Shown: one piece after another, positions 9,101 to 56,693 of the stretch
Position numbering within the stretch: position 1 is the first letter of the stretch
Layout: every line of letters starts with the position of its first letter
DNA from: an uncultured Clostridia bacterium
GTDB lineage: Bacteria; Bacillota; Clostridia; Christensenellales; UBA1242
Reading direction: 5' to 3'
DNA length: 64,000 nucleotides
Assembly (NCBI GenBank): GCA_944360075.1
Contig: CALVTE010000001.1
Coordinates: 7,054 to 71,053 of the forward strand
Translations under genes and position numbers: made by a program
Notes under the pieces: model-generated
What the model was told of the DNA's origin: nothing
What the model saw: the letters and a program-made list of their open reading frames with translations, nothing else
Databases searched by the model: none

Positions 9101-9378
9101 CCAAACCCCACAAAAGAAACATTTCCGTCAAGGTCAACTCTTGCAACTTCTTCATTTGTGCTTTGCCAAATCACTTCTTGATTTGTGGCGTTTGTTGGAT
9201 AGATGGTTGCTTCAAGCGAAATGGTCTCGTCGATATTTGCAGTGATTTCGCTTCGATCAAGCTCGATTCTGTCAACAGCAATAGAAACATTGCCAACCAC
9301 AATATCCATTGTGAAGTTGACCAGAATAATGATTACGAGTGGAATTGCCACCATTAAAAATATCATCAGTTTTTTCAT
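3106..9378 (-). CDS. Giant membrane-anchored surface protein with about 17-19 bacterial Ig-like (Big_2) domains and a C-terminal beta-helix-like domain.
   Basis: 2090-aa ORF. The N-terminal hydrophobic segment is MKKLMIFLMVAIPLVIIILVNF. There are many tandem modules with the Big_2 signature, e.g. IYPTNATNQEVIWQSTNEEVARVD, ILPSNATNKNVIFQLDDQSIATVN and VLPTDASNKTLVYSSSDQSIATVD. The last ~420 aa contain short repeated turns (NITRSNLVIDNVVLRG, NILIYNTIIENAHV, VTFKGCILRNSFAGGLIL, VTVEDSIFASS) suggestive of a right-handed beta-helix. The start overlaps the upstream permease stop by 4 nt. Confidence 0.85.
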   Translation of the reverse strand: MKKLMIFLMVAIPLVIIILVNFTMDIVVGNVSIAVDRIELDRSEITANIDETISLEATIYPTNATNQEVIWQSTNEEVARVDLDGNVSFVGFGRGYITATAVDGNKTASCYFYVTDSRVHQIELSSPQQEMHVGSNLQLSWEISPYEAENKNVIFSSSDESIAEVDQNGLVTALKIGYVTISATTEDGGYSDFVNLSVTRPVEDIVLNTSYAITGESTYSIGYQILPSNATNKNVIFQLDDQSIATVNSLGQVSFSRAGQVEVTLTTVDGGFSKTMTVVYTAGYAHSLQLEKYSITATLGDAAQIIDYTVEPSYLTSTEVSFSSSNEDVAYVKDGYLYFFSGGDATITVSVEKAEGVYITEQIAVYVESPATGILIEDVVTADKTVTLRPRSFPEDSTNNKFFYHSSSNEVSVNEDGDVTFLTDNPTTATIKIFANKDYSNISTTVSVQYTAGKAKTFVLNQEKIVMDYGSSSVIDYSVFPSNANANAVQVEILSQTSNAGRGQVVEILPDGSLRGIGGGKAQVQVSLVLLDGQKASYELEVEVLREVEDIEILLDLEMQNGEYVTALNTLSFSASCLPADATNKTITWSLDDKNMGVILGDTLRFNQSGLVKLIATTTSGYSESVSVRYTGSYPISAQVGVLVDGKVQSMPQTLNAGDQFEVAIKEVFPSNSIYRNISLSVSNQQTASPQGKVLTTEGSTITAVAGGKATLTVYVSTTVILTFEINVYQNVDSIEVTPSNITTTNSMLTLQANVLPVDATNKDVVFQVLTPEIAYIEGTSLYFLQNGVAQIVAISQDDPEKTYLFTIEKIAEGIEIVDPTQGEIKMYVGGQIKLDFASVGNDYHHLEIQFAQSSGSDLLSIDGDILQALKKGQCQIICTLYDQAGGMIESYQIAIIIEQLVDDIIYAGELEQYNGYLVTATDLTSLNFDAKSKGEVIEAALNYKITSSYNSNGEAQEIADIDEQTKTLHWIGAGILTIEVSSSDGNVAKSFKFRYTGGDALDAQINQSKEVLLNVGDSITIEVTKWTPSDTTNKRILIRETNHTTGVNVVSIDKNLTITALNGGFSNIRLELSNGLTYDITINVIKKVTSIVVSEENIVTASSSAVINATAYPNSATDKTLSYQIEKVDFARLEGNKVIFSSAGTVVVTISTMDGSNLHKQVSVTSTMGYLSSIALNVDSKPLAKGSSFSLFVTQTYPLDATNKDIHFKILSQSAVGGGQNDVVSISQSGSTILVKGLYGGSAVIRAYSQNSLGEEIFADCTVTVNTPVEGIDIDFEQELQFYQIGYVTSQSKLFFDTVISPADASNQEVDVFISNPNIASVEEGVITFKQPGIVTITFTSRDNTSGEKSVSYIFNYTGDYTLLEANLNLQAFDSGVLRLDAGAQVQLSLESFVPKDNKNVSLSLTTLTEERNDEQKPVFSFENGLIKALNGGQAIFTLSANNISVGTYTIVVNRQATDIVVEEGPVYVSSAGYQIQTSVLPTDASNKTLVYSSSDQSIATVDTFGGVSFSGYGTVVITIRLESNPAISKQITIEYTRNIKDISFSAPRDAMYATDYVVLEVNPQPIYADGYTYSFALSDESVASLAQQDKLHWVLRGKKAGQVKVTISVDGTGISYSKTFTFYAKITDISLKLDVNDGDEKYGHGKYRVFANRFVDDLGKLSNQYVMEYSTKPSGQDFAGQIEWSSSDEDIATVDQNGVVTIKGSGVVTITAPQVQPYEGANVVWDSYTFYLVDGINVYNFEQYKIAIKALAKINKEKTDNFSALVLHSDIAITDSDFNHSLNYNIYGNGRMIDFSGDKAYNKINITRSNLVIDNVVLRGWEFEDEAALSKLDSKGKILQISNHVTNILIYNTIIENAHVLAEVINSQVTFKGCILRNSFAGGLILNSQANDSFVADVTVEDSIFASSLLSCILFKPVYVNITDKYYDSKLTLIGDVRIYNWLTLDEFEGGSINSFFAEYGLSDIAADIISQIKNIISTNYSQYKYTYNGEDYYMLGVLNLSAKVANLFDFQSNGVIYKGQLNPNFNYVDGQINVAVSLIAFSGELKLNMLTLMGNGTPFIRPQDTYEGDTTILNQIVQPRRDDALGF

Positions 9379-22887: not shown

Positions 22888-25800
22888 TTATTTGGTTTTT
22901 TTGCTTTTGTTTTCTTTAACTTTTGAAACGATAAAGTAAACCACAACTCCACCGAGAATCACTGACGCAACTCCAATCAAAACTTTGCCGACAATTTCTG
23001 TGACATTGACAGGCTCGATTGAATCTTCGCCAACTGTAAAGGTGAATTTTACAGCGTCGCTCACGTTTCCAGCAGTATCTTTCACCGTGATGGTCACTTG
23101 ATAGCTGCCTTCTTTTTCAATTGTGTAAGAATAAGCATATTCTCCTTCAACATCCGATGAGTTTTTCACAGTCTCAGGTGCAGAATTTGTGCTTGTGTTT
23201 TTTACTGTGATAGAAATGTTGTCAAGCAGTTCTTCTCTGCTAGAGCCGCCTGGGTCATTGACAGTGACAAGACTTTCGTCAGCAATTTTGAAGTCGATGG
23301 GGTCGCCAACTTCATATTTTGAAGCGATAAACTTGTTGTCAGAATTTTCAATAGTAAGTGTTGGAGCAGAAACGTCACCAACCGACAAAGTGTAAGATTT
23401 TGTTTTTGTGCTGCCTATTGGCTGCCCTGCATAATCTTTTGCTTTGAGAGTGTAAGTGATGGTATATTTGCCATTTCTGTTGAGTTTAAGGTAAATATTT
23501 TCGCCTTCTTGGGTCAAATAAGTTTGGTCGTCTTGAGAAATATTCCAGTCAGAAAGCTTAAGAGTTTTAAGCGTGCTTGTCGTTCCACCAACGTTTGCAA
23601 CAGAAATGCTTACCGTCGAATTGTCAAGGTCAATTTGTCCTTCGCCTGTAACCTCACCGTTAAGTTTTTTAACTAAAACTCTGCTTGTAAGGTCGCCATA
23701 TATCGTTTTTGGATAGTCCGCATCGTCCATATAAAGGTTTACAGCAACTTCGCCTGAAGTGAAAGTAAATTTGCTGCTTTTAACTTCGTGGAGCTCAACA
23801 ACAACTTCGTCATTTGCATATTGTGGCAAACTGTTGATGTCAAGTTTTTTGTCATCACATTCGGCAACAATCACATTTTCTCCATTTTCATCAACTGACC
23901 TATAAATTTTGTAAACTTCGCCAGCCACAGCTGTGCCAGAGCCTTCAAGACTTTCAGTTCCGTCAGCCTTGTAAGCAAGTTGGTCTTGTCCTTCATTGTC
24001 AGTTGTCAAGAAAAGCTTGCCGTTTTCGCCTTCATCAGTCATTGAGAAATATTTTGCATCAGTTGGATAGCTGATAAGGAAAGCGGTGTATTGCAAGGTG
24101 TAAGAGCCCTTTGCGTTGGCTGTGAAAGAACCTTCCCCTTGGTTGAGAACATATTTGTCGTTGTCCGCTTCGGTAACATTGATCATATAGTCAATAGCAT
24201 AATTTTCGCTTGAATAAGCGTCAAAACCGATGTAGCCAAGCTCGTCACTTTCAGCAACTGAGATTTTTGGTTTTGCAAATGTTTCTGTCTGATCAACAAG
24301 AATGTCTTTTTGTGATGAGCCGATGTTTGAAATCTCAATCTTTCCAACAACAGGAATTTCTTCAACTTCATAGACAAAATATGTTGTCACTGAGTGGTTG
24401 CCTGCATCTGTGACAGTCACAGCAGCAATATACGTTCCGCCCACTGAAGGAGTGAACTGACCTGCCATAAGTTGGTAATCGCCAGAGCCTCGGTTTGGCG
24501 TAGCATTCATGCCTGAGCTGTGAACAACAATTTGAGAATCTTCTTCAACTCGGTATACAACAACAGCCGAAGTCATATAGTGAGGCAAGTTGTCGTGATA
24601 AGTCAGTGTTGGCAAAACGATAGTCTTGTCGTTGACATATCCCCCGTCAACATCTGGAGCTGAAACAACTTCATACAAGTATGGAGCCTCTTCATCTTTG
24701 ATATTTGAAACATAGCATTGTTGAGAATAGAAAGCAACATTGCCATAATCGTCAACTGCGTATGAGAAAAATTCGATATATGCTGCATTTTCTGGCTTTT
24801 CTGAAAGGTCAATATCATATTCGTCTTCCCCTTCAAGAATGGTCCAGCCAGAAGAAGAAACAACATTGTGCTCATCTGCTTGAACATACCATTTTTTTGA
24901 AGAAATGTTGATTTTTGAAGCTTCGTTAATCACATATTTGATGTCTTTTGTCTTTTCTCTCACGATTGGCTGTCTGCTTGAGTCAAGATATCTGTAAGCA
25001 GTGTGAAGTTCAACGTATGAGTCTCCTTCGCTAGTTTCTTCGCCATTGGAAGATACTTGATCTGAAGCTGTTGGAGCAGCCAAAGTGATGATGTCATCTT
25101 CAAGATATGAGTTTTTAAGTTCGGTTGAATAGCTGATGGTTGGAACGGTCATATCGTCAGCATTTGCAACAATGTCAAAACTATAGTCAGTTATGCTTTT
25201 GTTGTTTGTTTCAACGTTGTCGTCAGCATAGTAGTAAACATTGTAAGACTCTGTTTTAAATGTTTCACTACTGCTTGCCTCAATGCAGGCATAACCAAGG
25301 TCAATCCATCCTTGTTCGGTGGTTGGTGCGCCATTTTCAAACGCGAAAGCTTCTGCTGTGACAGGGTCTGTCTTTCCATCAGTTACAATAAGATATTTAT
25401 GCTCTTGGAGCCAATTTTTGATGGCGGCGTCATCACTCTCATAAATGCCGGCAAGAATCATTTGATTGCGGATGTAAGCATTGTCGTCATAGATGGCCTT
25501 GTAAACGCTTTTGCCATCCGTTGAATCTGATTTTGCGTTGAAGATAAGGTTGTAGTGGTCATAGCCTTGAATATCATAAACAAGAACACTGCTGTTTGAG
25601 CCTCTTCTGATTTCACGATAAAGGTTCAAATCTTTCTCTTCAACATGGTTATCATGGCCGCCGATTGCAAAAACCACAATATTTCTGTTTTCAGTTTTTG
25701 TTTTCACGTGGCTGAGTGCAGACTTGTAAGATCCGTCTTCATTCTTCACATTTTCAGCCCCTGCATCATAGATATAAGCAGTTGGAGACAGAGTGTCGCG

Positions 25801-27021
25801 CACATTTTTGATTGTAAAACTGTTTGTAGCTTCTTGGCCATAGAAGTCTGTTGCAGCATATTCAATTTTGTAGTCGCCATTTTTTGGAGCGGTAAAGTTG
25901 TTGTCTTCGTCAATAGCGTTCGCAATTGTTTCCACAACATTTCCGTTTTCCAAGCGGTAAACGTTGATCTCGTAAGAAACTGCAACACTTTCGCTTGCTG
26001 GAGAATCACTGGCTGAAGTGGTTGCATTGATTGATGGCAGCGCAGTCTTCACACCAACGATTGCAGAAGACGGTGCAGAAGACGCTCTTGAAATGGTCAA
26101 AGTATAGCCAGATTTGTTATAGCTGTCTTTATAATAGCTATCTTTGACTGAGAAAGTTTTGGTGACAGACTCAATTTGCGCGTCTTTTTGCGCGCCTTTT
26201 TGAAAGAAAGTGTAAACAACATTGAAGGTGCTGCCGTTTGCGCCTTCCAATAGGTCGCCGTCAATGTAATACTTTCCTTCAGCGCTTCTTGCAATCTTGA
26301 CATTTTCTGAGTAGCCTTGGTCGAGAGTGATGGTCATATATTCATTTTCAGTTGCCTCTTCTCCGTCAATTTTGACAGGCACGTTTTCAATTTCGTCGCC
26401 ATTTTTGTCAGTGATTGTTGGGATTGGCAAAATAATGTCTTTGAAAGAGCCATCTTTTTTGCTTAAAGAAAGGTCGTAAACTGAAGGCAAAATGTTTTTG
26501 TCGTTTGTGTCAAAAGTGAAAGTAACATCGTTGATAGTGCAACGAAGGTCTAGAGTGTATGTGTAAGTAACTCCATCATCAGTCACGCTATAAACAATTT
26601 CATATTGCCCAACTCGATCAGCATCAAATTGCACACCTGATTGGAATCCACCTTCTTGCTCAGAAGAATCATAAACCACAGTGCCATCGGCATAGCGAGC
26701 AACAACTTTTGAAGTGACGCCTTCTTCAGAAGCAGTTCCAATGATGTGCGCAGTTGTTGAACCACCATAATAATTTCCTGTTGGAATAGTAAACTTCCCA
26801 CCCTTTGCTACCGTTGTTTCAATGCCGCTTGCATCAACTTCGATTCTGTTTGTGTTTTGAGCAATTTGGCCGTCGCTCAATGTTGGGTTTGAGTCTTGTT
26901 TATAGTTTGCAGCCAAAGTTTGAATAGCCCCCACAGGCACAAAAGACCCGCACAAAACAAGGGCGGCGCCAAAGGCTGCACTTTTGAAAATATTTTTTGT
27001 TTTTAAGTTTTTTCTGTCCAT
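22888..27021 (-). CDS. Large cell-surface protein with a signal peptide, multiple Ig-like/cadherin-like beta domains and a C-terminal TM anchor.
   Basis: 1377 aa. The N-terminus is KSAAFGAALVLCGSFVPVGAIQTLAANY. Recurrent segments of the type ATDFYGQEATNSFTI, TVTDAGNHSVTTYFVYEV and TVKDTAGNVSDAVKFTFTV look like the ends of Ig-like domains. The C-terminus is VLIGVASVILGGVVVYFIV followed by the basic tail SKVKENKSKKTK. Confidence 0.8.
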   Translation of the reverse strand: MDRKNLKTKNIFKSAAFGAALVLCGSFVPVGAIQTLAANYKQDSNPTLSDGQIAQNTNRIEVDASGIETTVAKGGKFTIPTGNYYGGSTTAHIIGTASEEGVTSKVVARYADGTVVYDSSEQEGGFQSGVQFDADRVGQYEIVYSVTDDGVTYTYTLDLRCTINDVTFTFDTNDKNILPSVYDLSLSKKDGSFKDIILPIPTITDKNGDEIENVPVKIDGEEATENEYMTITLDQGYSENVKIARSAEGKYYIDGDLLEGANGSTFNVVYTFFQKGAQKDAQIESVTKTFSVKDSYYKDSYNKSGYTLTISRASSAPSSAIVGVKTALPSINATTSASDSPASESVAVSYEINVYRLENGNVVETIANAIDEDNNFTAPKNGDYKIEYAATDFYGQEATNSFTIKNVRDTLSPTAYIYDAGAENVKNEDGSYKSALSHVKTKTENRNIVVFAIGGHDNHVEEKDLNLYREIRRGSNSSVLVYDIQGYDHYNLIFNAKSDSTDGKSVYKAIYDDNAYIRNQMILAGIYESDDAAIKNWLQEHKYLIVTDGKTDPVTAEAFAFENGAPTTEQGWIDLGYACIEASSSETFKTESYNVYYYADDNVETNNKSITDYSFDIVANADDMTVPTISYSTELKNSYLEDDIITLAAPTASDQVSSNGEETSEGDSYVELHTAYRYLDSSRQPIVREKTKDIKYVINEASKINISSKKWYVQADEHNVVSSSGWTILEGEDEYDIDLSEKPENAAYIEFFSYAVDDYGNVAFYSQQCYVSNIKDEEAPYLYEVVSAPDVDGGYVNDKTIVLPTLTYHDNLPHYMTSAVVVYRVEEDSQIVVHSSGMNATPNRGSGDYQLMAGQFTPSVGGTYIAAVTVTDAGNHSVTTYFVYEVEEIPVVGKIEISNIGSSQKDILVDQTETFAKPKISVAESDELGYIGFDAYSSENYAIDYMINVTEADNDKYVLNQGEGSFTANAKGSYTLQYTAFLISYPTDAKYFSMTDEGENGKLFLTTDNEGQDQLAYKADGTESLEGSGTAVAGEVYKIYRSVDENGENVIVAECDDKKLDINSLPQYANDEVVVELHEVKSSKFTFTSGEVAVNLYMDDADYPKTIYGDLTSRVLVKKLNGEVTGEGQIDLDNSTVSISVANVGGTTSTLKTLKLSDWNISQDDQTYLTQEGENIYLKLNRNGKYTITYTLKAKDYAGQPIGSTKTKSYTLSVGDVSAPTLTIENSDNKFIASKYEVGDPIDFKIADESLVTVNDPGGSSREELLDNISITVKNTSTNSAPETVKNSSDVEGEYAYSYTIEKEGSYQVTITVKDTAGNVSDAVKFTFTVGEDSIEPVNVTEIVGKVLIGVASVILGGVVVYFIVSKVKENKSKKTK

Positions 27022-28240: not shown

Positions 28241-29113
28241 TTATTCTTTTTCATTCAAACTCCCAAACAGCTTGTCAAGAGTTTCTTTTGCATCAGTTTT
28301 TGCTTGCTCAAACTCTTTCGCTTCCTGTTTTTTGCTTTCAAGCAATTTGCTAAGTTCTTCTATTTCTTCTTTAATTTTAAGCGCATCATCTGGTCCGTTT
28401 GTTTCTTCAATTTTTTGAGCATAATACTTATGTATAATTGAATTTAAAGCTTCAGAAAAACCTTCAGCCAAAAAACATTCTGGTGCTATTTCATTTATTG
28501 CTCCAAGATCTTTCTCTGCAACTCGTAAAGCCTCACTTTCATCTGCAATCTGAAAATCTTTGTTAATATGATACAATTTGTGATTTTTTCCTACTCTAGC
28601 ATAGCCTTCGCTGAAATCCCAAGCAAAATCATACCCTTCGCCATGAAGCTTAAAGTCTTTGTCGTCAACATAATACCATTTGCCATCTTTTTCTACTCTA
28701 GCATAGCCTTTTCTGAAACCTTCAGCCTTATCATATCCTTCACCATGAAGTTTAAAGTCTTTGTTGTCAACATAATACCATTTGCCATCTTCTCTTGCTA
28801 CAGCATAGCCTTCTATGAAATCACCAACCCAATCATACCCTTCGCCATGAAGTTTAAAGTCTTTGTCAACATGATACCATTTGCCATCTTTTATTACTAC
28901 AGCATAGCCGTCGCTGAAATTCCAAGCCATATCATACCCTTCGCCATGAAGCTTAAAGTCTTTGTCTACATAATACCATTTACCATCTTTTTTTACTCTA
29001 GCATAGCCTTCTCTGAAAGCGCTAGCTTCATCATACCCTTCGCCATACCATTTGCCGCCCAAGTCTTGATAAAAGTATTTTCCATCTCTTTTTACAGCCA
29101 TCATAAAATCCAT
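28241..29113 (-). CDS. WG-repeat (KWG-type beta-propeller-like) protein with a C-terminal coiled-coil tail.
   Basis: There are about six tandem ~33-aa units of the form GEGYD.A..F.EGYARV.KDGKWYYVDKDFKLH. AAAGGAGAGAG lies upstream of the ATG. Confidence 0.8.
   Translation of the reverse strand: MDFMMAVKRDGKYFYQDLGGKWYGEGYDEASAFREGYARVKKDGKWYYVDKDFKLHGEGYDMAWNFSDGYAVVIKDGKWYHVDKDFKLHGEGYDWVGDFIEGYAVAREDGKWYYVDNKDFKLHGEGYDKAEGFRKGYARVEKDGKWYYVDDKDFKLHGEGYDFAWDFSEGYARVGKNHKLYHINKDFQIADESEALRVAEKDLGAINEIAPECFLAEGFSEALNSIIHKYYAQKIEETNGPDDALKIKEEIEELSKLLESKKQEAKEFEQAKTDAKETLDKLFGSLNEKE
28560..29070. repeat. Intragenic tandem DNA repeat (~100-nt period) encoding the WG units.
   Basis: Strings such as CCTTCGCCATGAAGCTTAAAGTCTTTGTC and ATACCATTTGCCATCTTT recur at roughly 100-nt intervals on the plus strand. 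Confidence 0.7.
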
Positions 29114-37504: not shown

Positions 37505-41628
<4,124 letters not shown>

Positions 41629-41720: not shown

Positions 41721-41750
41721 CAAAAAAAGCCCTGCGTTAAAACAAGGCTT
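41721..41750 (-). terminator. Rho-independent terminator, read on the minus strand, distal to the repeat array.
   Basis: On the minus strand: AAGCCTTG, loop TTTTAACG, CAGGGCTT, followed by TTTTTTTGG. The T-G wobble is only valid on the minus strand. Confidence 0.6.
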
Positions 41751-41756
41751 TATAGA

Positions 41757-42165
41757 AAAATAGAAACAAGCAGCGCAAGGGGCGAAGGCTTTAGCGGGGC
41801 GGGAGTTTGGTTAGAGCCCCAAATGACCGGACCGAATCAGCCTTCAGCAAACAGCTGCGCGCCATGGCAAATAAAACAAAGTCTGCTGCGGAGATGATTT
41901 AAACAAAATAGAAACAAGCAGCGCAAGGCTCGAAGGCTTTAGCGGGGCGGGAGTTTGGTTTACGCCCAAATGACCGGACCGAATCAGCCTTCAGTAAACA
42001 GCTGCGCGCCATGGCAAATAAAACAGATTCTGCTGCGGAGATGATTTAAACAAAATAGAAACAAGCAGCGCAAGGGGCGAAGGCTTTAGCGGGGCGGGAG
42101 TTTGGTTTACGCCCAAATGACCGAACCGAATCAGCCTTCAGCAAACGCAGCGCTGCGCCGTTTAT
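41757..42165. repeat. Three head-to-tail copies of a ~148-nt GC-rich foldable element. The family is unknown and it may be a structured RNA.
   Basis: Copies lie at 41757-41904, 41905-42051 and 42052-42165; the third lacks the ~40-nt tail. The periods are 148 and 147 nt, with only a handful of substitutions between copies. Each copy contains GAAGGCT...AGCCTTC enclosing GGGGC/GCCCC or GGGCG/CGCCC. Confidence 0.85.
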
Positions 42166-42172
42166 ATTTTGT

Positions 42173-43648
42173 TTAAAGAAGGATGCAAATCACCCCACCC
42201 TTCCCCTCATTCACAATCCTGCCCAGAGTCTTGCGCATTTTTCGTTGAGCTTCGGCGGGCATCATGAGAAGTTTGGAGTTGATGTTATCGCCAACTAGTT
42301 CAGAAAGGGTGCGGCCAAGAATGTTGGTTTGCCAGATGGATTGAGGATCGTTTTCAAATTGGTCGACAAGATTTTTGGCAAGGTCTTGAGATTGGTCTTC
42401 GCTGCCAACAAGCGGGGTGAGCTCTGTTTCAACATCAACACGCATGATGTGAAGACTTGGTGCGGTGGCTTTGATTTTAACGCCGTAGCGAGAGCCTTGT
42501 TTGATGATTTCGGGCTGACCAAGTTCGAAATCGGTTGGCTTTGGCTCAACAACGCCATAGCCAGTTTGGCTGACTTGGTCAAGGGCGTCTTTAAGTTTGT
42601 CGTATTGAATTTTTGCGCTTGCAAGGTCTTTGATGTTGCAAAGAAGTTGATAATCGCTGGCAATTTCAATCCCGCACTGCTGTGAAAGCACTTTATAGAA
42701 AAGACCTTCCTTTGGAATGACGTCAAATTTTATCACTCCTTCGCCCGCTTGAATGTTGGAATAAGTGATAGGGTCAAACGAGTCACTTTCGGCAAAGGCG
42801 ATTTGGTTTTTGTCGGCATCGCTCAGGCGATTGATTTTGCCGCCGAGAGCACGCATTTCAGAGGCGATTTCGCTGATGATTGGACTGTTATAGTCAAGAG
42901 CTCGCAGCCAATCAGGCATAGAAATTCTGATAGACTTGACAGGAAATTCCATCAAAAGATTTTCAAAAATCTTGTCAACATCGCCTTCTTTAAGTTCAAG
43001 CGCATTGAGAGCAATCACTGGCACGTCATACTTTTCTTCAAGAGACGAAGAAAGCTTTTTTGTTTCAGCGGCAGCAGGATGAGCGCTGTTTAAAACAATA
43101 ACGAAAGGTTTGCCGGCAGCTTTAAGTTCTTTTACCACCTTTTCCTCTGCGTCAATATAGTTAGAGCGGCTTATGTCTGTGACCGAACCGTCGGTTGTGA
43201 CCATAATGCCAATCGTTGAATGCTCTTTGATCACCTTGTCGGTGCCAAGAGCGGCGGCTTCTTCAAAAGGGATTTCTTCTTCCGTCCAAGGAGTTTTGAC
43301 AAGCCTTGGTTTTTCGCCTTCCACATGCCCCATCGCACCCGAGATAAGATAGCCCACGCAATCAATCATTCGCACTGACATTTCGGCGTCAGCAACCTTG
43401 ATTTTGACCGCTTCGTTTGGCACAAAATGAGGCTGTGTGGTCATAATTGTTTTGCCATCGGCACTTTGCGGCAATTCGTCAACCGTTCTTTCTTTGGAAT
43501 TTTTTTCAGTGATATTAGGAAGCACAAGTTTTTGCATAAACTGAGTGATAAAAGTTGATTTTCCCACTCTCACAGGCCCAACAACGCCGATATAAATATC
43601 GCCATTGGTTCTTTCCTTAATATCATCATAGATTTCATATTTTTCCAT
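42173..43648 (-). CDS. spoIVA: Stage IV sporulation protein A (spore coat basement-layer ATPase).
   Basis: MEKYEIYDDIKERTNGDIYIGVVGPVRVGKSTFI carries the Walker A motif, and conservation is full-length. GGAGG lies 5 nt upstream of the ATG at 43648. Confidence 0.93.
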   Translation of the reverse strand: MEKYEIYDDIKERTNGDIYIGVVGPVRVGKSTFITQFMQKLVLPNITEKNSKERTVDELPQSADGKTIMTTQPHFVPNEAVKIKVADAEMSVRMIDCVGYLISGAMGHVEGEKPRLVKTPWTEEEIPFEEAAALGTDKVIKEHSTIGIMVTTDGSVTDISRSNYIDAEEKVVKELKAAGKPFVIVLNSAHPAAAETKKLSSSLEEKYDVPVIALNALELKEGDVDKIFENLLMEFPVKSIRISMPDWLRALDYNSPIISEIASEMRALGGKINRLSDADKNQIAFAESDSFDPITYSNIQAGEGVIKFDVIPKEGLFYKVLSQQCGIEIASDYQLLCNIKDLASAKIQYDKLKDALDQVSQTGYGVVEPKPTDFELGQPEIIKQGSRYGVKIKATAPSLHIMRVDVETELTPLVGSEDQSQDLAKNLVDQFENDPQSIWQTNILGRTLSELVGDNINSKLLMMPAEAQRKMRKTLGRIVNEGKGGVICILL

Positions 43649-43671
43649 AATAACCTCCAATGATACATCTT

Positions 43672-49711: not shown

Positions 49712-49736
49712 AAAAAAAAGCGGGCAAAAAGCCCGC
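49712..49736 (-). terminator. Rho-independent terminator distal to the solo repeat element.
   Basis: On the minus strand: GCGGGC, loop TTTTT, GCCCGC, followed by TTTTTTTT. Confidence 0.75.
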
Positions 49737-49744
49737 CTAGTTTA

Positions 49745-49908
49745 CTTATATATTACAGACCGCAGAGAAACAAGCGAGGCAAGGCTCGAAAAATGCTCAA
49801 GGCCAGGAGTTTAGCTTTTCTAAATGACTGGTTTTGTGCGTTTTTCAGTAAACGATGCAAGAAAAATTACAAGTAATTTTTCGGTCGCGCCGTTTATCTG
49901 TAGTCTGA
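49745..49908. repeat. Diverged solo copy of the 41.7-kb element, bracketed by a perfect 25-nt direct repeat.
   Basis: It shares AGAAACAAGC, GCAAGG(CTCGAA), GGAGTTT, AAATGAC.GG, TTCAGTAAAC and GCGCCGTTTAT, in the same order as the array copies. It is flanked by GCGGGCAAAAAGCCCGCCTAGTTTA at 49720-49744 and 49909-49933. Confidence 0.7.
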
Positions 49909-49930
49909 GCGGGCAAAAAGCCCGCCTAGT

Positions 49931-50179
49931 TTATTTATCTTCTTCATCCTTATCTTGCGACTTGGCTTCATCATCTTTGTCTGTTTTGTTCTCTGATGAA
50001 CTTTTTGGCATAGACACCACACCAAAAACCACCAAGATTCCAGCGATTGCCATGATTATCCCAGACACAACTTCGCTTTGAATTGAAAAACCAAAACAAT
50101 CACCCAGTGCTTGCAGCAGCACCACAACCGCACCTGATAAAGCCGTCCAAAAGCTATAAGATTTAATCTTGTCCTTCAT
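49931..50179 (-). CDS. Phage holin (phi LC3 / holin_1-like).
   Basis: 82 aa. KSYSFWTALSGAVVVLLQALGDCFGF and VVSGIIMAIAGILVVFGVV form two TM segments, followed by a charged tail. GGAGG lies upstream inside the bhlA 3' end. Confidence 0.7.
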   Translation of the reverse strand: MKDKIKSYSFWTALSGAVVVLLQALGDCFGFSIQSEVVSGIIMAIAGILVVFGVVSMPKSSSENKTDKDDEAKSQDKDEEDK

Positions 50180-50393
50180 CGTCTTGTGCCTCCAAAAATT
50201 GTTTTATTTCGTCAATATCCTGTTCGATGCGCTCCATTTTTGCCAAATGCAAAGTCAGCTGCGCGATGGTCTGGCGATAGGCCTCTTCGCGTTTTTCGCT
50301 GTCTTTAAGTTGCCAAAAAAACAGAAACACAAACAAAACGGCAAAAATTCCATTGCTGATTATCACTCTTAAAAATTCTTCCCAAAACTGCAT
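50163..50393 (-). CDS. bhlA: BhlA/UviB-family holin-like peptide.
   Basis: 76 aa. GIFAVLFVFLFFWQLKDSEKREEAY matches the BhlA pattern (GPFAVLF..LLFY..K....RE), and a coiled-coil tail follows. Confidence 0.7.
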   Translation of the reverse strand: MQFWEEFLRVIISNGIFAVLFVFLFFWQLKDSEKREEAYRQTIAQLTLHLAKMERIEQDIDEIKQFLEAQDDEGQD

Positions 50394-50494
50394 TTTGCAA
50401 AAGATTTGTCATTTCTAGCCAATTTTGAATTTTTCATAGCACCTCCACGAAAAATGTTTTGCAAACAAACTTTTGTCAGAATTGAAAGTGCTGA

Positions 50495-51973
50495 TTAGTT
50501 CTCAACGCACGCATTAAGCACAAAGGAAGAAATTTTTGAGCCCGCTTGGTCGGAAGAAATCGCAACGGAAAATTCGTCGCCATAGACCCCTGCAGGAATT
50601 TGCTGCAAAACCGAAGAGCCTTCAACCGAAAACTCCTTGGTTTGTTGGTCGCTTGTGATGACAACTTTGCATGGCAAAATGGATTTTATCAAAAAGGAAA
50701 TGATTTTTTTCTTTTTTCCATAAATGCCAAGATTTGTTTTCACGCTCTGCCATTTTGCCGGCAAAACAGCGCCAAATGATTTGCCAGAAAAAGAAAGTTG
50801 GCCGATTTTGCCTTGACTCTGACCATTAAAGCAAGCAACAAGTTTGCATTTGTAAGGATTGTTTAAGGCAAGCATCTGCTTAATGTCCACTCCCCGAACA
50901 ATCTCAACATGGCCGCTTTGCTCATCATAAACAAGCAAGGCATTGTTGCAAAACTGCAAGCTTTCGCATCCCACACTGTCGCCGTCAAAATCCATCTTGC
51001 AAGCCAGAAAATATTTGCCTTCAAAGCACTGGCCTGTGCAGTTTGCGTTGAAAGGTGAAAGCTTTTTTATCTCTGGGCAGTCAATACTGTGCACAGACGA
51101 ACCATTGAAATATTTTAGCCCTGACTTTTCCAAAAAATAAATTCGATCTCCGCTGTGAGCGATTGAATTTGGATAGATATAACTGTCCGATTGATAGAGA
51201 TGAGTGATAGAAAATTCGCTATCAGAAGAATACTCAGAAATTCTTGTTATGCCATACTCTCTGAAAATATAAACATAATCGTTGAAAGATATAAGTTTGG
51301 TCAAATTGCCTCTTCCATCAGTGAAATCCAAATTTGCACAAAGCTGATCGCTCCACTGCAAAACGTCAAGATTATCGCTATAAACAAGCCGTCCTCGAGC
51401 CTGAGCTGTGATGGCAAAAAGCCTGCCAAAGTGCGAACATAGCGAAATCATCTGCGGCGCTGACTGGCTGGTCTGCTGATTTTGCCCCACCAGCACCAAA
51501 AGGTTTTGACCTGGCCCTGAAAAAATCATTGAGTCAACCCCTTCAATTTTATATTTCATCCCAATCGGAGTGTCCGAAAACTGAGTGTTTATAACAAGGG
51601 TTGCCGGCCTTGAGGAAAACAAATTGTCATAGCAAACTTTGGCTTGGTCGTTGAAATACATGCAATAATACTTGTTTTCGTCACTGTCTTGGTCATACCA
51701 CTCAAAATCCCATAATGCCGTGACCTGATTTCCACTTATTGCCACAGTGGTTTCGTTTTCAAGGTTGGTTTTGGAAATAGGACTGGCAAAATCATCAAAG
51801 CCATAACCGCTTTCAAGTGCGCCGCTTTTTGTGCGGAAGTTATAGCAATGCTCTGTCAAATTGAAATCGCATAAACTTTGCTCTTTTTCTGTTTGAAATG
51901 GCGAAGAAAACATATCAAAAACAAATGTTTTTTTGCTGGTAGATTTTGTTTTTAGCCTGTTTTTGTAAAACAT
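50495..51973 (-). CDS. Large phage structural protein. By position it may be a tail-hub/head-completion protein analogous to P22 gp10.
   Basis: 492 aa starting at the ATG at 51973, with AAGGAGGAGGTGG upstream and an ATGA overlap with the preceding gene. It is beta-rich and Cys-rich. The function is inferred only from gene order after capsid and adaptor. Confidence 0.55.
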   Translation of the reverse strand: MFYKNRLKTKSTSKKTFVFDMFSSPFQTEKEQSLCDFNLTEHCYNFRTKSGALESGYGFDDFASPISKTNLENETTVAISGNQVTALWDFEWYDQDSDENKYYCMYFNDQAKVCYDNLFSSRPATLVINTQFSDTPIGMKYKIEGVDSMIFSGPGQNLLVLVGQNQQTSQSAPQMISLCSHFGRLFAITAQARGRLVYSDNLDVLQWSDQLCANLDFTDGRGNLTKLISFNDYVYIFREYGITRISEYSSDSEFSITHLYQSDSYIYPNSIAHSGDRIYFLEKSGLKYFNGSSVHSIDCPEIKKLSPFNANCTGQCFEGKYFLACKMDFDGDSVGCESLQFCNNALLVYDEQSGHVEIVRGVDIKQMLALNNPYKCKLVACFNGQSQGKIGQLSFSGKSFGAVLPAKWQSVKTNLGIYGKKKKIISFLIKSILPCKVVITSDQQTKEFSVEGSSVLQQIPAGVYGDEFSVAISSDQAGSKISSFVLNACVEN

Positions 51974-52524
51974 CAAAGCCACCTCCTCCTTGGCATTTTC
52001 CCATGAGGTGAAAGGCGACAAATCAGTTCTAAAGAATTTTTGAAACGCTCTTCAAAAATGTCCGCATCGTCAAAACGGCTTTGCATAAACAAAAACTCTC
52101 TTGCAACACCATAGGCAAAAATCCGCTCAGGCAAAAAACTGTCAACTTGGTCAGTTATGCTCAAAACTGGTGGCAAAATGCTATAGCAAACGATTGCTTT
52201 TTTGCAAAGAACAAAAATGTGGTCATCAAATTGCTTAAAACGCATTTTTCTGCCTAGCCCATTTTTGACATACAAAATTTTGTAAGGCTTAGCTGAAAAT
52301 TGACTGAGCAAAATTTTGCCATTTGCAACATCAAACTGCTCAATTTTTTTGATGGGCACAAATTCGCTTGCAACTTCATTGTTGACAAGGTTGAAACACT
52401 TTACAAGCCTGTCGGCAATTTCTTGCTCGCAGCTTTCAAGCGTCGAGCCTTGTTCCAGTTTTTGCGCAAGAGCTTGCTGCTCTATGAAATCACAGGATAG
52501 TTTTATTATATCTTTTACTAGCAT
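51973..52524 (-). CDS. Phage head-tail adaptor/connector-like protein, inferred by position and size.
   Basis: 183 aa. The N-terminal helical segment VKDIIKLSCDFIEQQALAQKLEQG...EQEIADRLVKCFNLVNNEVASEF resembles gp6/gp4-type head-completion proteins. It overlaps both neighbours. Confidence 0.45.
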   Translation of the reverse strand: MLVKDIIKLSCDFIEQQALAQKLEQGSTLESCEQEIADRLVKCFNLVNNEVASEFVPIKKIEQFDVANGKILLSQFSAKPYKILYVKNGLGRKMRFKQFDDHIFVLCKKAIVCYSILPPVLSITDQVDSFLPERIFAYGVAREFLFMQSRFDDADIFEERFKNSLELICRLSPHGKMPRRRWL

Positions 52525-52862
52525 AGTGCCTCCTTAAATTTGTTTACTTCTTGTTTCAGCATTTGGTTGTAAAGATTCTCGTTATATTTGTCAATCTCAG
52601 CAATAATTTTGTCCGAGTTTTCTCTTCTGGTTTTTAGGGCAAACTCGACAGCGCGCTCATCCAGGCAAGGATAAGGCAAAGTAAAGCAATAACTTCCTCC
52701 CACTTGTTCAACGCTATGCACCTCGTATTTTTGTTTTTTTAGATTGAAAACCACTCGATAACTCGGATCGACCTGCTTTAGCCTTTGACAGACAAAAAGG
52801 TTGTCGCTGTCAATAAAAACATAGTCTTTGTGGCTGTGAAAAACAAAATCTTCTTTTCTCAT
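52518..52862 (-). CDS. Hypothetical phage protein.
   Basis: 114 aa starting at the ATG at 52862, with GGGGG upstream. I recognised no motif. Confidence 0.5.
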   Translation of the reverse strand: MRKEDFVFHSHKDYVFIDSDNLFVCQRLKQVDPSYRVVFNLKKQKYEVHSVEQVGGSYCFTLPYPCLDERAVEFALKTRRENSDKIIAEIDKYNENLYNQMLKQEVNKFKEALC

Positions 52863-52915
52863 TTTTACCCCCAAATTAAAAGATAAAAAGGCAAAACTGT
52901 TTGCCTTTTATCTTA

Positions 52916-54118
52916 TTATAAACCAGAATCATCAGCGCCTGAAGCAGAACCTGAACCGATTGTGGAATTGATTTTTGTCAGAAGTGCTTGTCCACAAGGT
53001 TTGTCGCAGATAAGTTCAGCATATTTAACCAATGTTGCACTGTATGCAGGTTGGTCGGCGTTTTGCCTTAAAATTCTGCCGTTTTCACCTTCCAGCCACT
53101 TCCAGTCGCAAAGTTGATGAAGAGTGAAATCTTTTGTGCTTAAAAGGAACATTTTGCCGCTGTCAACAAATCTGTCTGCCACAACAGGAATGCCGTTGTG
53201 AGAGATGGTTTTAAAGCCCCCTTCCAAATCCATCACATCGATGTTGCGCTTGCAAGCTGAAAGATATTGCTGATAAGCTCTGCGAATTTCGGCAGTTGTT
53301 GCAATATAGTCAACTTGCGAATCGTGATTGAAATCAAGTTCGTCAATAGCCTCTTGAATAAGAGTGTCGGAAATATCTTGATTTGACGAAGGAGCAGAAA
53401 CGTAAGGCTTAAGCCATGGATAATCAGCCACGCTTACTCCATAAAGAGAAGTGTTTGTGGTGTCAAAAATTTTGCCAAGCCCAGTGATTTCATATCCTTT
53501 TGAGCCTTGGCAGTAAATTTTGTCGCCAGTTTTGATAGTTGCAGTGCCCTCAAAGTTGAAAGTTTTGTTGACTCTGTCAACATAAGTGATTTTTAGCTGT
53601 TTTGCGTTCACGCTTTCGCCAGTGTAAACATCAACAAGCATACCTTCAATAAGATTGTTGACCTTGTCGCAAGTGACAGTTTGACCGCTGGCTGTTGAAA
53701 CGGTTGCAAGCAGACCTGAGCCATCGCCATAAAGCATTCTGCCAAGATTGAAAGCGCTTGCTTTGACAAGTCCTTCCATTTCGTCAGAAAGAAGGTTTAC
53801 AAAAGCGCCCAAGTTGTTTGCAGAGGCTCTGATTGCCTTGTCTGAAAGTTCGATTTTTCCATACAAGTTTTTAAGCTCGGCAGTAAATTGCACATAACTG
53901 TTGCCTGAAGATTTTGGCAGTGATGCAGTTTCGCTTCCTGCTCCCACACCGCCGTTGATGCCAAAAGGTGCAAGTTTGCGGATTTCTTTTCCCCAAACAT
54001 CTTTGCTTGACATTTTGATTTTTGCCAAAAGTGGATTTGATCTTACGTTGAGTTGGTTGGCAACAACACCAAGATAAACATTTTTCAATGCACTTTCGGC
54101 CGATGTTAAAGTTACCAT
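52916..54118 (-). CDS. Phage major capsid protein (HK97-fold type).
   Basis: 400 aa. GKIELSDKAIRASANNLGAFVNLLSDEMEGLVKASAFNLGRMLYGDGSGLL follows the HK97-family pattern (...s.e.l.d....l...l...l......E...l.GdG.g...G). AAAGGAGAAA lies upstream, and the gene follows a scaffold gene. Confidence 0.75.
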   Translation of the reverse strand: MVTLTSAESALKNVYLGVVANQLNVRSNPLLAKIKMSSKDVWGKEIRKLAPFGINGGVGAGSETASLPKSSGNSYVQFTAELKNLYGKIELSDKAIRASANNLGAFVNLLSDEMEGLVKASAFNLGRMLYGDGSGLLATVSTASGQTVTCDKVNNLIEGMLVDVYTGESVNAKQLKITYVDRVNKTFNFEGTATIKTGDKIYCQGSKGYEITGLGKIFDTTNTSLYGVSVADYPWLKPYVSAPSSNQDISDTLIQEAIDELDFNHDSQVDYIATTAEIRRAYQQYLSACKRNIDVMDLEGGFKTISHNGIPVVADRFVDSGKMFLLSTKDFTLHQLCDWKWLEGENGRILRQNADQPAYSATLVKYAELICDKPCGQALLTKINSTIGSGSASGADDSGL

Positions 54119-54181
54119 AATTTCTCCTTTTTTTAAGTTTTTTTAAGTTTTTTTGCAAGAAAAAAGTCGAAATCTGAAAAT

Positions 54182-54847
54182 TTAGTTAAACATTTTGCTC
54201 ACAATCTCTTTTGCTTCGGCCAAGGAAGATGGAGTGTCAGGGCTTAAGCTTGACACTCTTTCTCCGCCTTGTGAAGAAATGACATAAGGTGGTTTGTGCT
54301 TTTCGAGATTGTTGAGATATTCTTGAATAACTTGATTTCGCACTTGCTCGTCCGACAAAACATATTTGTTTACAATCGGGTCGCTGGCTTTTGGTTTTGT
54401 TCCAGTCAAATGATCCAAAACCACCCCTGCCCATGCGACTTGATAGGGGTCGGCTACAGTTGAAGAAGCATGGATTTTTTGCTTGATTTCTTCTTCAAAC
54501 TGTTTTGCATCATCATTTGCCAAAAGGAATGATTCAAGATTGCTTTGAATTTGTTGACTATGCTCTTCCTGCTTTTGTTCAAACTCGATTTGTCCCTGTG
54601 TTTGGTCAGGCTGAGCCGTTTCTTTGCCTTCTTGAGCCATTTTGTCTTTTTGCATTTGACTGAGCTGTTGGCATTTTTTGGTAAACTCGCTCTGCAAATT
54701 GTTATAGGCCTCTAACAACTTATCTGCAGATTTGAATTTGCCATATTGCCCCTGAGAGCCGACTTCACTCGCAGCACTCTCTTCACTCGTTATGTTTATA
54801 ACATTTGCCGGTTCCACAGTCGGTTGTTCTCTGTTTTCTTCTTCCAT
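54182..54847 (-). CDS. Phage scaffolding protein.
   Basis: 221 aa, Gln/Glu-rich and predicted helical. It lies between portal and capsid. AGGAGG lies upstream, and the start is 1 nt after the portal stop. Confidence 0.65.
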   Translation of the reverse strand: MEEENREQPTVEPANVINITSEESAASEVGSQGQYGKFKSADKLLEAYNNLQSEFTKKCQQLSQMQKDKMAQEGKETAQPDQTQGQIEFEQKQEEHSQQIQSNLESFLLANDDAKQFEEEIKQKIHASSTVADPYQVAWAGVVLDHLTGTKPKASDPIVNKYVLSDEQVRNQVIQEYLNNLEKHKPPYVISSQGGERVSSLSPDTPSSLAEAKEIVSKMFN

Positions 54848-54848
54848 T

Positions 54849-56693
54849 TTAGCCTCCTATTTGTTTTTTATGTTCGCGTATATGCTCCAAGAAAATTTCT
54901 TCAAGCCTCGCGTTATCTTTTTTTGCCTTTTCAAAATCTTGTCCAAGCATAAAGGCGATATGCTCGTTGATATGCAGTTTATGCTCATCAATTTCCATGG
55001 TTTTGCAGACCACACCATCAAGCATTTTCAGATTTTCGCTTGCCGCCTTTTTGATGTGCAGTTCATTCAGATCTTGAGCATTTTCCCAAATGCCGAGCCC
55101 CAGCATCTCCATAATTTTGCATTTTGTGGTGTTTGAGATTTTGCCTTGCTCGTCTTGCAAAAGGCCGTTATCCAAAAGTTTGAAAACCATGTCTCGTTTT
55201 TGCGACGGCAAATTCAAGTTGTCCGTTTGCGCCGACAGGGTTATATCATCACTCGTGATATCGCTGCTTGAAAAATAAAACATATCCACCTGCCCATTTT
55301 CACCCACAATTTTTGCCAGTCTTGGAAAGAGTGCAAACTGCCGATATAACTTCAAAATATATCCAGCAAGCATTTTGCAGGCGTTTTTTATGCTTTCACT
55401 TGTTGCATTAAGCCTTGCTTCGTCTTGGCTAATCATAAGTTCAAGCGCCACACCACTTATGTTGGCAGAGGCATAATCTGTGCCAAGAGTCTCGCTCACG
55501 CCGCTGATTTTTGTAAATTCTTCCAGCAATTTTTCTTCTTCGTCATCAATGCCGTTTGGCAAGTTTTCTCCTTCCAAAAATTTTGGAGCCACCGAACCTT
55601 GCCTATACACCAAAATTTTGCCTGGGCAAAGGCCTTCATCTTCCAAATTGTCAAGGTCAACCGAGCCATCTTCCACGCTAAGCACACCCATTGAAAGCCT
55701 GTTGACAAACTCGTGCTTGCGGTTTTTTATGGCATTGTAAGCCCGTTGGACTGGAATAAGTCGCTCGATGATGCTTGCGCCCCAAAAACAGCCCGGCTCT
55801 TCGGTGCAAGTTTGTCTGATAAATGGAAAGTCTCGCTCTTTGTCGGTGCCAAGCTTGTAAGGCAGCGGCCCATCATAAACCAATTTGTCACCCGCAACTA
55901 TAACAAGTCTGCCTTCTGGAAATTGAGCATTTGGTCTTGAGTATTTTTCAATCACGATTGCGCTGTCAGCCTTGCCGCTTTCAATGATTTTTGGCACTGT
56001 TCCATTTGAGCCCAGCCCGCCAATGCCTTCAACTGTGCTGCCAAGGGCAAAAGTGTTGATGGTTTTGCCTTCAGTTTCAACGCCATACATCTGCTTGATT
56101 TGGTCGATTGAATATGCCTTTGCGTGAATTATGCTTTGGCACTGGTCAATATCTTCACAAACAGTCGAGTCGGGATAGATTTCAAAAGGGCTGAGCACCG
56201 ACACTTCAACTTCGCCGCTTCTGACCTCTCTGCCCTTTTCATCTTTGCCAACAACAGTGCCTTTTGACGGGTTCCAGCCCACTTTATAAAAAGCTGTTCC
56301 GCAAACTTCCGCCCATTTGATTGCTTTGTTGACAAGCTCTGGCAAATTGAGTTTGTTTTTGACCGCTTCAAAAATCTTTTTGCTCACCTTTGCCGAATGC
56401 TTGTCTCGCTCATCATTTGTGGCTGGAATGATGGCAATATCTGGCTTTATGTTGGCAAGTTTGGCATAACGAATATCAAAAATTGGCGCTATATGGTTGA
56501 AAACTTCTCTCTCTTGCCAAAAAAATTGTTTTTCGCTCTCTTCAATGCCGCCATAACCCACCGAACAAAATTGATTGCCCATCAAAAAGTTCATATTCAT
56601 CTTCCAGATAAGGTCAAAACTTTTTCTTGCCTGTGCTCTTTTTTCAAAATCTTCCAAAATTTGCCTTACCAATTTGTTTTCTTCTTTTTTCAT
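54849..56693 (-). CDS. Phage portal protein.
   Basis: 614 aa. The N-terminal segment RKSFDLIWKMNMNFLMGNQF and the later segment VSVLSPFEIYPDS...SIIHAKAYSIDQIKQMYG follow common portal patterns. Its position before scaffold and capsid is consistent. Confidence 0.75.
   Translation of the reverse strand: MKKEENKLVRQILEDFEKRAQARKSFDLIWKMNMNFLMGNQFCSVGYGGIEESEKQFFWQEREVFNHIAPIFDIRYAKLANIKPDIAIIPATNDERDKHSAKVSKKIFEAVKNKLNLPELVNKAIKWAEVCGTAFYKVGWNPSKGTVVGKDEKGREVRSGEVEVSVLSPFEIYPDSTVCEDIDQCQSIIHAKAYSIDQIKQMYGVETEGKTINTFALGSTVEGIGGLGSNGTVPKIIESGKADSAIVIEKYSRPNAQFPEGRLVIVAGDKLVYDGPLPYKLGTDKERDFPFIRQTCTEEPGCFWGASIIERLIPVQRAYNAIKNRKHEFVNRLSMGVLSVEDGSVDLDNLEDEGLCPGKILVYRQGSVAPKFLEGENLPNGIDDEEEKLLEEFTKISGVSETLGTDYASANISGVALELMISQDEARLNATSESIKNACKMLAGYILKLYRQFALFPRLAKIVGENGQVDMFYFSSSDITSDDITLSAQTDNLNLPSQKRDMVFKLLDNGLLQDEQGKISNTTKCKIMEMLGLGIWENAQDLNELHIKKAASENLKMLDGVVCKTMEIDEHKLHINEHIAFMLGQDFEKAKKDNARLEEIFLEHIREHKKQIGG

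Follow-up and report, generated by a model that had tools for sequence, protein, structure and literature searches.

Introduction

The spacer between spoIVA and pcrA in the 64,000-nt stretch of DNA analysed here (the window) contains a GC-rich tandem array of hairpin-forming units. This raises the question of whether the array is an RNA locus, a regulator of spoIVA, an artefact or the product of mobile DNA. The answer that we consider likely is that a MITE-like insertion landed at spoIVA, was amplified in place and is read through as part of the spoIVA 3' UTR. The evidence is drawn from the anatomy of the array, the covariation of its fold, the insertion sites of related copies and the state of the locus in other strains and species.

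Anatomy of the spoIVA Array

The window contains a single array of this type at 41757-42153, with a period of 147, 2.7 copies, 94% matches and a score of 708 (TRF). TRF and copy-to-copy alignments agree with the tandem arrangement and copy boundaries given in a preliminary description of this DNA. The GC-richness that it reported relative to the surroundings is borne out as well (51.6% GC in the array and 40.0% in the whole window). By Pfam, the array is flanked by SpoIVA (42173-43660, minus strand) and a PcrA/UvrD helicase (39469-41628, minus strand). On the pcrA side it is bounded by the spoIVA intrinsic terminator (41721..41750, minus strand), which is present in all strains compared. This terminator has a 10-bp stem (AAAGCCUUGU-loop-GCAGGGCUUU) followed by U7, with a fold of -12.6 kcal/mol.

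A more natural phase for the repeat unit starts at TTTAAAC (41898, 42045). With this phase, the body of unit 1 (41751..41852, plus strand) consists of a degenerate left arm, TATAGAAAAATAGAAAC, the 5' half of helix P2, the long hairpin P3 and the end CAGCAAAC. It has no right arm, and cmsearch gives 61.7 bits at 41748-41902. The 45-nt tail 1 (41853..41897, plus strand) consists of a degenerate 3' half of P2, AGCTGCGCGCC, and a remnant of an ancestral terminator's loop, 3' stem and spacer. The body of unit 2 (41898..41999, plus strand) has a full left arm, TTTAAACAAAATAGAAAC, the 5' half of P2 and P3, again with no right arm. It is followed by a 45-nt tail 2 (42000..42044, plus strand) that differs from tail 1 at about three positions. 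In copies 1 and 2, the tail thus stands in the place of the right arm.

The third copy was previously described as having lost the tail. The tail is indeed missing, but the copy has its own distinct 3' end, GCAGCGCTGCGCCGTTTATATTTTGTTTAAA, which reaches 42177 and cannot be put down to mere loss. This end is the inverted-repeat partner of the 5' end of the same copy. Unit 3 (42045..42177, plus strand) is therefore a complete 133-nt element closed by an 18-28-nt inverted repeat (TTTAAACAAAATAGAAACAAGCAGCGC ... GCGCTGCGCCGTTTATATTTTGTTTAAA), a feature that had been overlooked, and its right arm overlaps the spoIVA stop codon (42173-42175). The unit scores 112.8 bits with cmsearch. It folds into one long branched hairpin (-61 kcal/mol, z -7.6), in which P1 pairs 42045-42062 with 42160-42177, P2 pairs 42065-42071 with 42150-42156, and the outer stem of P3 pairs 42079-42085 with 42133-42139. 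Orthologous single copies in four other contigs (L020, L026, L055 and L056) have the same ends as unit 3.

The array is enclosed by the spoIVA stop codon on one side and the first minus-strand terminator on the other, a position from which the preliminary description had placed it in the spoIVA 3' UTR. This assignment stands. On sequence grounds, the array would be read through as spoIVA 3' UTR in antisense orientation, and any effect on spoIVA would presumably be exerted through the stability or processing of the mRNA 3' end.

Conserved Fold and Covariation

A consensus structure was obtained with RNAalifold from a MAFFT alignment of 16 copies representing about 6 lineages. P1 is the outer stem and P2 a short helix, and P3 is a long hairpin whose internal loop is a tandem GA/GA. 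A further hairpin, P4, is optional and absent from the array subfamily. Compensatory double changes are present in 30 of the 53 consensus pairs. At the consensus positions 94.9% of cells are paired, compared with 32-49% in controls with the partners slid by 1-3 columns. The slid controls contain 9-11 covarying pairs, and none of 500 shuffles reaches the observed level. The covariation is strongly significant with both kinds of control.

Several details of the earlier fold are altered by the family consensus. The stem GAAGGCT/AGCCTTC is real and forms the base of P3, which covaries across the family. An inner hairpin, GGGGC/GCCCC in one copy and GGGCG/CGCCC in the others, had been taken as evidence of compensatory change. 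This is not upheld, as its 3' bases form the apical loop of P3 in the consensus. That loop varies freely across strains, with at least five forms (TTAGAGCCCC, TTAGAGCCC, TTTACGCCC, TTTATGCCC and TTTATGTCC), and the 5' G-run is constant. The proposed pairing of the 5' GCAGCGC with a segment just 3' of the stem corresponds to P2 (GCAGCGC with GCGCTGC) and is supported by covariation in the family, but an intact partner is present only in the complete copy 3. The alternative pairing with CTGCTGC in the tail, from which mutually exclusive folds had been suggested, is not supported; this sequence is a remnant of the 3' stem of the old terminator and not part of a switch. The earlier view that the array is non-coding holds, as the sole recurrent ORF (start AAATGAC) changes its amino acids with the covarying stem.

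The two strands of the element are not equivalent. G·U exceeds A·C at consensus pairs, with 32 and 6 cells, respectively, in eight representatives and 16 and 7 distinct sites. The excess is present in every lineage, and the conserved wobble pairs are all G·U. One invariant G·U lies inside a covarying helix, next to the conserved tandem GA/GA loop. An excess of G·U over A·C on one strand argues that the window's plus strand, which is antisense to spoIVA, is under selection to fold as a single strand. The plus strand also has the higher covariance-model score, but the model was itself derived from this strand; the argument is circular and is not counted as strand evidence. The conserved 5' motif served as the search key, and its invariance, which is part of the conserved core, reflects ascertainment bias.

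The P1 arms, 15-28 nt across the family, differ in sequence between subfamilies with their pairing kept, and the internal motifs and the invariant G·U are conserved. Variable terminal stems with conserved internal motifs are unusual for a classical MITE and point to selection on a single-stranded fold, of either RNA or ssDNA. Such selection is compatible with a mobile element, though not with a simple transposon recognised by its double-stranded terminal inverted repeats.

On the opposite strand, the 5' junction motif (CGAGCCTTGC...GCTTG TTTCT) gives a weak terminator-like hairpin followed by a U-rich tract, which is flagged repeatedly. It occurs in all copies (e.g., window 41915-41932 and 49771-49788, minus strand), and the terminator-like signal is probably incidental.

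A Second Copy and a Dispersed Family

Two family loci are found within the window by cmsearch. The second, which was missed in the preliminary description, is a diverged member at 49750..49907 (plus strand), between comEC and the holin end of a prophage. By alignment it is of the main-subfamily type with the extra hairpin P4, and it scores 169 bits with cmsearch. It is bracketed by a 31-bp target duplication of the holin-gene terminator hairpin. The left copy, AGCGGGCAAAAAGCCCGCCTAGTTTACTTAT, is at 49719..49749, and the right copy, at 49908..49938, overlaps the holin stop codon (49931-49933). The two are identical at 30/31 nt, with a score of 57 compared with a shuffled maximum of 25. The L020 sequence stops about 50 bp short of the site corresponding to this copy. 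The adjoining prophage-like region (49931-56693, minus strand) contains a phage holin (49931-50179), a BhlA-family holin (50163-50393), several ORFs without a Pfam match (50495-54118) and a P22-like portal (54849-56693).

Membership in a dispersed, insertion-like family had likewise gone unrecognised. One scan of a genome collection, with a pattern common to all four window copies, returned 26 true loci and 3 obvious chance matches. The hosts are at least eight uncultured Clostridia, Firmicutes or Christensenella MAGs, with up to 8 loci of the main subfamily per MAG. A metagenome scan added 8 further true copies. The array's own subfamily has no match in the metagenome scan and is found only at spoIVA. 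Viral contigs gave no family matches, and blastn of annotated plasmids and phages gave nothing relevant.

The elements are 133-175 nt, most commonly about 175 nt, and composites reach 370 nt. The composite forms (250-370 nt) have one or two additional modules that look like the core in miniature; these forms are found at L007 1189-1559, L012 4954-5324, L015 4210-4465, L027 5642-5899 and L039 803-1173. These modules (a hairpin, then ...AAAC[A/G]AGCG-hairpin-GCGTAGTTTGT...) interrupt the P3 stem of the standard element. Either related mini-elements inserted into one another to give the composites, or the composites form a modular subfamily.

Other copies differ in their arrangement. At L009 1-199 (minus strand), in another MAG, a family member without P4 is present in at least two head-to-tail copies (period 128); the array extends past the start of the locus, so the copy count is a minimum. 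In L033, two copies (3962-4115 and 5605-5760) lie 1.6 kb apart, with an acpS-like gene, a MazF/PemK-like toxin gene and a small ORF between them; the close relative L045 lacks only the first copy. Copies in L014 and L021, and in L013 and L022, are identical over 158 nt within unrelated flanks, in MAGs labelled as representatives of different species. Such identity suggests recent activity of the elements or their exchange among lineages. In a Christensenella sp. MAG (L016 3955-4110), the 3' P1 arm (…TTGGAGGGCTAAATG) supplies a Shine-Dalgarno-like GGAGG and abuts the ATG of a downstream 243-aa ORF, and P1 folding could occlude the ribosome-binding site of this ORF.

Insertion Sites of the Family

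Ten copies are flanked by a direct duplication of the locus-specific terminator hairpin (21-31 bp), with duplication scores of 42-57 compared with shuffled maxima of 21-37. The copy in L038 has a 35-bp hairpin duplication, and the right-hand duplicate has been lost at the orthologous site in L005; hairpin duplications therefore decay. In total, 11 copies have a duplicated hairpin of 21-35 bp, and its sequence is different at every locus.

L045 provides a clean empty site. Its flanks are 92-97% identical to those of L033, L044 and L008, which contain an element at the same point, and the missing element is 153 nt. In these three loci the insert is exact from P1 arm to P1 arm and duplicates nothing; it lies where the terminator ACACGAGGTTTTCCTCGTGT has its 5' foot. 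The hairpin duplications and the empty site therefore identify insertions at hairpin feet, in the arrangements E-H, H-E or H-E-H, where E is the element and H the hairpin. No flanking duplication is detected around the spoIVA array when the same test is made against shuffles. Because this subfamily was found only at spoIVA and has no flanking duplication, its origin by insertion rests on its absence from relatives and on its family membership.

The strongly supported structure raises the alternative that the family consists of plus-strand genes for a functional structured small RNA, ribozyme or protein-binding RNA. The array would then be a multi-copy RNA locus, and spread by duplication would be secondary. 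The level of pairing and covariation agrees with this, as do the G·U excess on one strand, the invariant G·U beside the tandem GA/GA loop and the sense terminator directly after the L033, L044 and L008 copies. However, no consistent sigma-70-like promoter is predicted on the plus strand in or near the array or three other copies. Orientation relative to the neighbouring genes is mixed (about 7 sense, 8 antisense), with no bias with respect to host genes or terminator polarity. The target duplications and the presence or absence of copies among close relatives are not congruent with a conserved RNA gene, nor is the spoIVA locus, where there are one to three copies in some genomes and none in 90%-identity relatives. 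The conserved 5' motif also owes part of its conservation to its use as the search key. An origin as RNA genes is thus unlikely, and a MITE-like insertion is preferred.

Strain and Species History at spoIVA

SpoIVA orthologues and their contigs were graded by identity to the window. Among contigs of the same species (SpoIVA identity of 99% or higher), the window, L048 and L049 have three units in a spoIVA-pcrA spacer of 544 or 541 nt. L047 and L050, which are identical and come from two samples, have two units in a spacer of 396 nt. The short contigs L052 and L053 have one unit, flush with the terminator. These single-unit contigs are short and of low coverage and are possibly collapsed, yet they carry a private variant common to two samples. 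L030 and L051 have scaffold gaps (N) within the array. Unit number within the species is thus 1, 2 or 3. In the sister species (SpoIVA identity of 94%; L055, L056, L020 and L026), the spacer is 270 nt and contains one complete unit with no tail and a different terminator. At 90-92% SpoIVA identity (L057-L061), there is no element but an AT-rich spacer and a terminator, and synteny with pcrA is kept in L058-L061.

The N-gaps inside the array in two assemblies could be taken to mean that the array is an assembly artefact or a meaningless minisatellite. Four independent assemblies nevertheless resolve 2 or 3 units with distinct SNP patterns, and homologues of the unit in other genomes share a conserved structure. 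Because independent metagenome assemblies of the same species carry the array, it is no artefact of assembly, and we regard this explanation as practically negligible. The spoIVA copy is a lineage-specific arrival and not a conserved part of the locus, because it is absent at 90-92% SpoIVA identity.

Strains differ in which units of the array carry which variants, a pattern that points to continuing unequal exchange or conversion. At 19/22 nt (p about 0.001), the tail is identical to the sequence that flanks the sister species' single copy on its terminator side. The matched flank consists of the terminator loop, 3' stem and spacer that adjoin the single copy. The repeat unit is therefore composed of the element body and part of the old flank. 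This composition, read from the sequence, has the signature of in-place tandem duplication rather than repeated transposition.

The following course of events would account for the locus. A small (about 133-175 nt), non-coding, hairpin-shaped mobile element, of a family that integrates at the foot of intrinsic-terminator hairpins in uncultured Clostridia, would have inserted between the spoIVA stop codon and the terminator in a recent common ancestor of the window's species and its sister species. Later, in the window's species, the element body without its right arm would have been amplified in place, taking with it about 45 nt of flank from the side of the old terminator. Unequal recombination or slippage during replication would have produced the tandem duplication, and the array would since have kept expanding, contracting and undergoing gene conversion, giving strains with 1-3 units and mosaic variants. 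The array, without a promoter of its own, would be transcribed passively and in antisense orientation, lengthening the spoIVA 3' UTR by a long structured segment, with the transcript ending at the terminator at 41721-41750.

The array might instead have grown by repeated insertion into a duplicated terminator hairpin (H-E-H-E-H, in a CRISPR-like manner) and not by unequal recombination. Whole-hairpin duplication is typical of the family, the tails between units are derived from a terminator, and L009 is a second tandem case (period 128). Growth of this kind is not congruent with the units themselves, however. Units 1 and 2 are incomplete at the right arm, and their tails have no 5' half of the hairpin. 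Tails 1 and 2 are nearly identical to one another yet strongly different from the terminal terminator, there is no hairpin between unit 3 and spoIVA, and the mosaic variants indicate exchange between units. Repeated insertion is accordingly judged very unlikely relative to amplification of a single insertion.

Between the two species, the element is 88% identical and spoIVA coding DNA is 86% identical. The element is therefore no less conserved than the coding DNA, and some host-level constraint may act on it. Close to the view implied by the preliminary description, the array could be a dedicated cis-regulatory element of the spoIVA 3' UTR, such as a signal for stability or localisation of the mother-cell mRNA. 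It is always read through before the terminator, is kept in at least three species with its structure intact and 88% identity, and its minus strand also forms a strong fold (-161 kcal/mol, z -4.6). A cis-regulatory element would be expected to be present at orthologous positions across the clade that shares the gene context, but the element is missing from the spoIVA loci at 90-92% protein identity (L057-L061). In addition, copy number is polymorphic within the species, members of the same family lie beside unrelated genes in both orientations, and the strand favoured by G·U is antisense to spoIVA. A dedicated regulatory role is for these reasons highly improbable. The array is a young, polymorphic passenger of the spoIVA 3' UTR and not a conserved regulator.

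Classification and Comparison with Known Systems

The family shares some but not all properties of MITEs. The elements are of MITE size (133-175 nt), have no coding capacity and have terminal inverted repeats in the form of the P1 arms. Multiple dispersed copies are present for the main subfamily but not for that of the array, which was found only at spoIVA. A short target site duplication of fixed length is not found; the duplication is either 0 bp or 21-35 bp and corresponds to the target hairpin. Duplication of a variable inverted repeat on insertion, as in IS1630, is seen in 11 copies. This likeness is one of behaviour and not of membership, because no transposase was found in about 300 kb. 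The array is therefore filed as a small palindromic MITE-like insertion sequence whose local amplification has produced a variable-number tandem repeat. A classical double-stranded DNA transposon model does not account for two features, the subfamily-variable terminal stems and the strand-biased conserved fold. The preliminary description had named as its refutation two outcomes taken together, an absence of covariation and copies that behave like a simple minisatellite or a fragment of a known IS or MITE. MITE-type and variable-number behaviour were found, but the covariation is present and strongly significant.

Other identities were rejected. The earlier failure to match the array to an RNA family is repeated here with Rfam, as there are no matches at the gathering score in the window and 7 family loci. 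At E<=10 the array has only chance matches, the best being a miRNA model with 25 bits and a threshold of 98. CRISPR arrays have repeats of 21-48 bp and unique spacers of similar size. The array consists of head-to-tail 147-nt units without unique spacers and is not a CRISPR array, as already concluded in the preliminary description. Type III toxin-antitoxin (ToxI-like) repeats are about 36-45 nt long, occur in tandem and immediately precede a toxN-type endoribonuclease gene; the period of 147 nt and the neighbours, spoIVA and pcrA, exclude this type. A group IIC intron is excluded by the size of the elements (133-175 nt, with composites to 370), by the lack of an Rfam intron match and by the lack of an ORF. 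Integron attC sites are excluded because GAGAAAC/GTTTRTC does not fit the boxes RYYYAAC/GTTRRRY.

Several known systems resemble the family in part. IS1630 of Mycoplasma fermentans, an IS30-family element (Calcutt et al. 1999), reportedly duplicates inverted-repeat targets that vary in length and sequence. Recognition would therefore be by structure and not by sequence. The reported target duplication resembles the H-E-H signature of the family. Unlike IS1630, which is an autonomous insertion sequence encoding a transposase, the elements here have no ORF, and no IS30-like partner with matching ends is found in about 300 kb.

EFAR repeats of Enterococcus are classed with bacterial MITEs. They are about 170 bp, with modular sequence types and stem-loop folds, and integrate into stem-loop targets of 24-37 bp. 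EFAR insertion is reported to delete most of the target stem-loop, whereas the target is duplicated in the family described here.

YPAL/RU-2 of Yersinia (De Gregorio et al. 2006, summarised in PMC2229807) is a non-coding palindrome of about 168 bp with inverted repeats that are internal rather than strictly terminal. Its target site duplications are 3-26 bp, its targets span or adjoin dyad symmetries, and it is co-transcribed with its neighbours (PMC2229807). The similarity to the family lies in size, the non-coding palindrome, duplication of variable length and a dyad-symmetry target. The elements described here differ in host phylum, in duplicating a whole terminator hairpin (21-35 bp) or nothing, and in their invariant G·U, strand-biased fold, nested extra modules and tandem arrays. 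We know of no sequence relationship between YPAL/RU-2 and the family.

Group IIC introns insert just downstream of terminator stem-loops or inverted repeats and recognise structure and a few bases (PMC1702495). Their insertion is precise and without duplication, as in the filled/empty pair L033/L045, unlike most main-family copies, which have a hairpin duplication. These introns are ribozymes with domains I-VI, domain V being a catalytic hairpin; they are at least about 600 nt long and usually contain a reverse transcriptase ORF.

The spoIVA array can also be compared with small intergenic tandem arrays. The MIRU-VNTR of mycobacteria are arrays of this kind that differ in copy number between strains. 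BOX in pneumococcus and BrickBuilt in P. gingivalis are small non-coding intergenic repeats with head-to-tail arrays, often co-transcribed with their flanks (PMC3184786; PMC4596501). The units of MIRU-VNTR, BOX and BrickBuilt are 23-100 bp and, unlike those of the spoIVA array, are unrelated to the family. To our knowledge, none has been reported to derive from an element that duplicates terminator hairpins.

Mobilisation and Significance

The insertion sites suggest that the family may be mobilised by a structure-specific enzyme, which would nick a DNA hairpin or cruciform at its feet. Nicking there would yield either no duplication or duplication of the whole hairpin. No candidate for such an enzyme was found. 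Within the approximately 300 kb examined, there is no autonomous element or transposase with matching ends, and 306 kb contain no long shared repeats or solitary termini that would mark an autonomous partner.

A more far-reaching reading, which we hold to be rather doubtful, is that the family represents a new kind of non-autonomous mobile element. Its substrate would be its own single-stranded fold, as RNA or ssDNA of one strand, and the enzyme would read the geometry of hairpin feet. Such a substrate would account for integration at any intrinsic terminator with zero or whole-hairpin duplication. The enzyme would in that case recognise the conserved junction motifs together with the invariant G·U and the tandem GA/GA loop, and the nested modules would be elements inserted into each other's hairpins. 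Formally, this resembles repeat duplication by Cas1-Cas2 or the variable target site duplications of target-primed reverse transcription.

For spoIVA biology, the MITE-like array is of little consequence. As a variable-number tandem repeat it is a ready strain-typing marker for this uncultured gut-type Clostridia species, and it explains the assembly breaks at spoIVA-pcrA. It also opens the way to a family of small structured elements, so far undescribed, that target terminator hairpins and often duplicate them. The family remodels gene 3' ends and terminators in poorly studied Clostridia/Christensenellales-like genomes. The strand-biased covarying fold with its conserved loops suggests a structure-recognising mobilisation machinery. 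If identified, this machinery could extend the known repertoire by an integrase or retroelement that targets hairpins independently of sequence.

Other Features of the Window

A 102-nt tandem repeat with 4.7 copies and 81% identity is present at 28571-29046, within the ORF at 28241-29113 (minus strand). This repeat is coding, forming part of a 290-aa protein of WG-containing beta repeats, and is unrelated to the spoIVA array. Two very large minus-strand ORFs, at 3106-9378 (2090 aa) and 22888-27021 (1377 aa), contain Ig-like domains (Big_2 and Big_13) and probably encode surface proteins.
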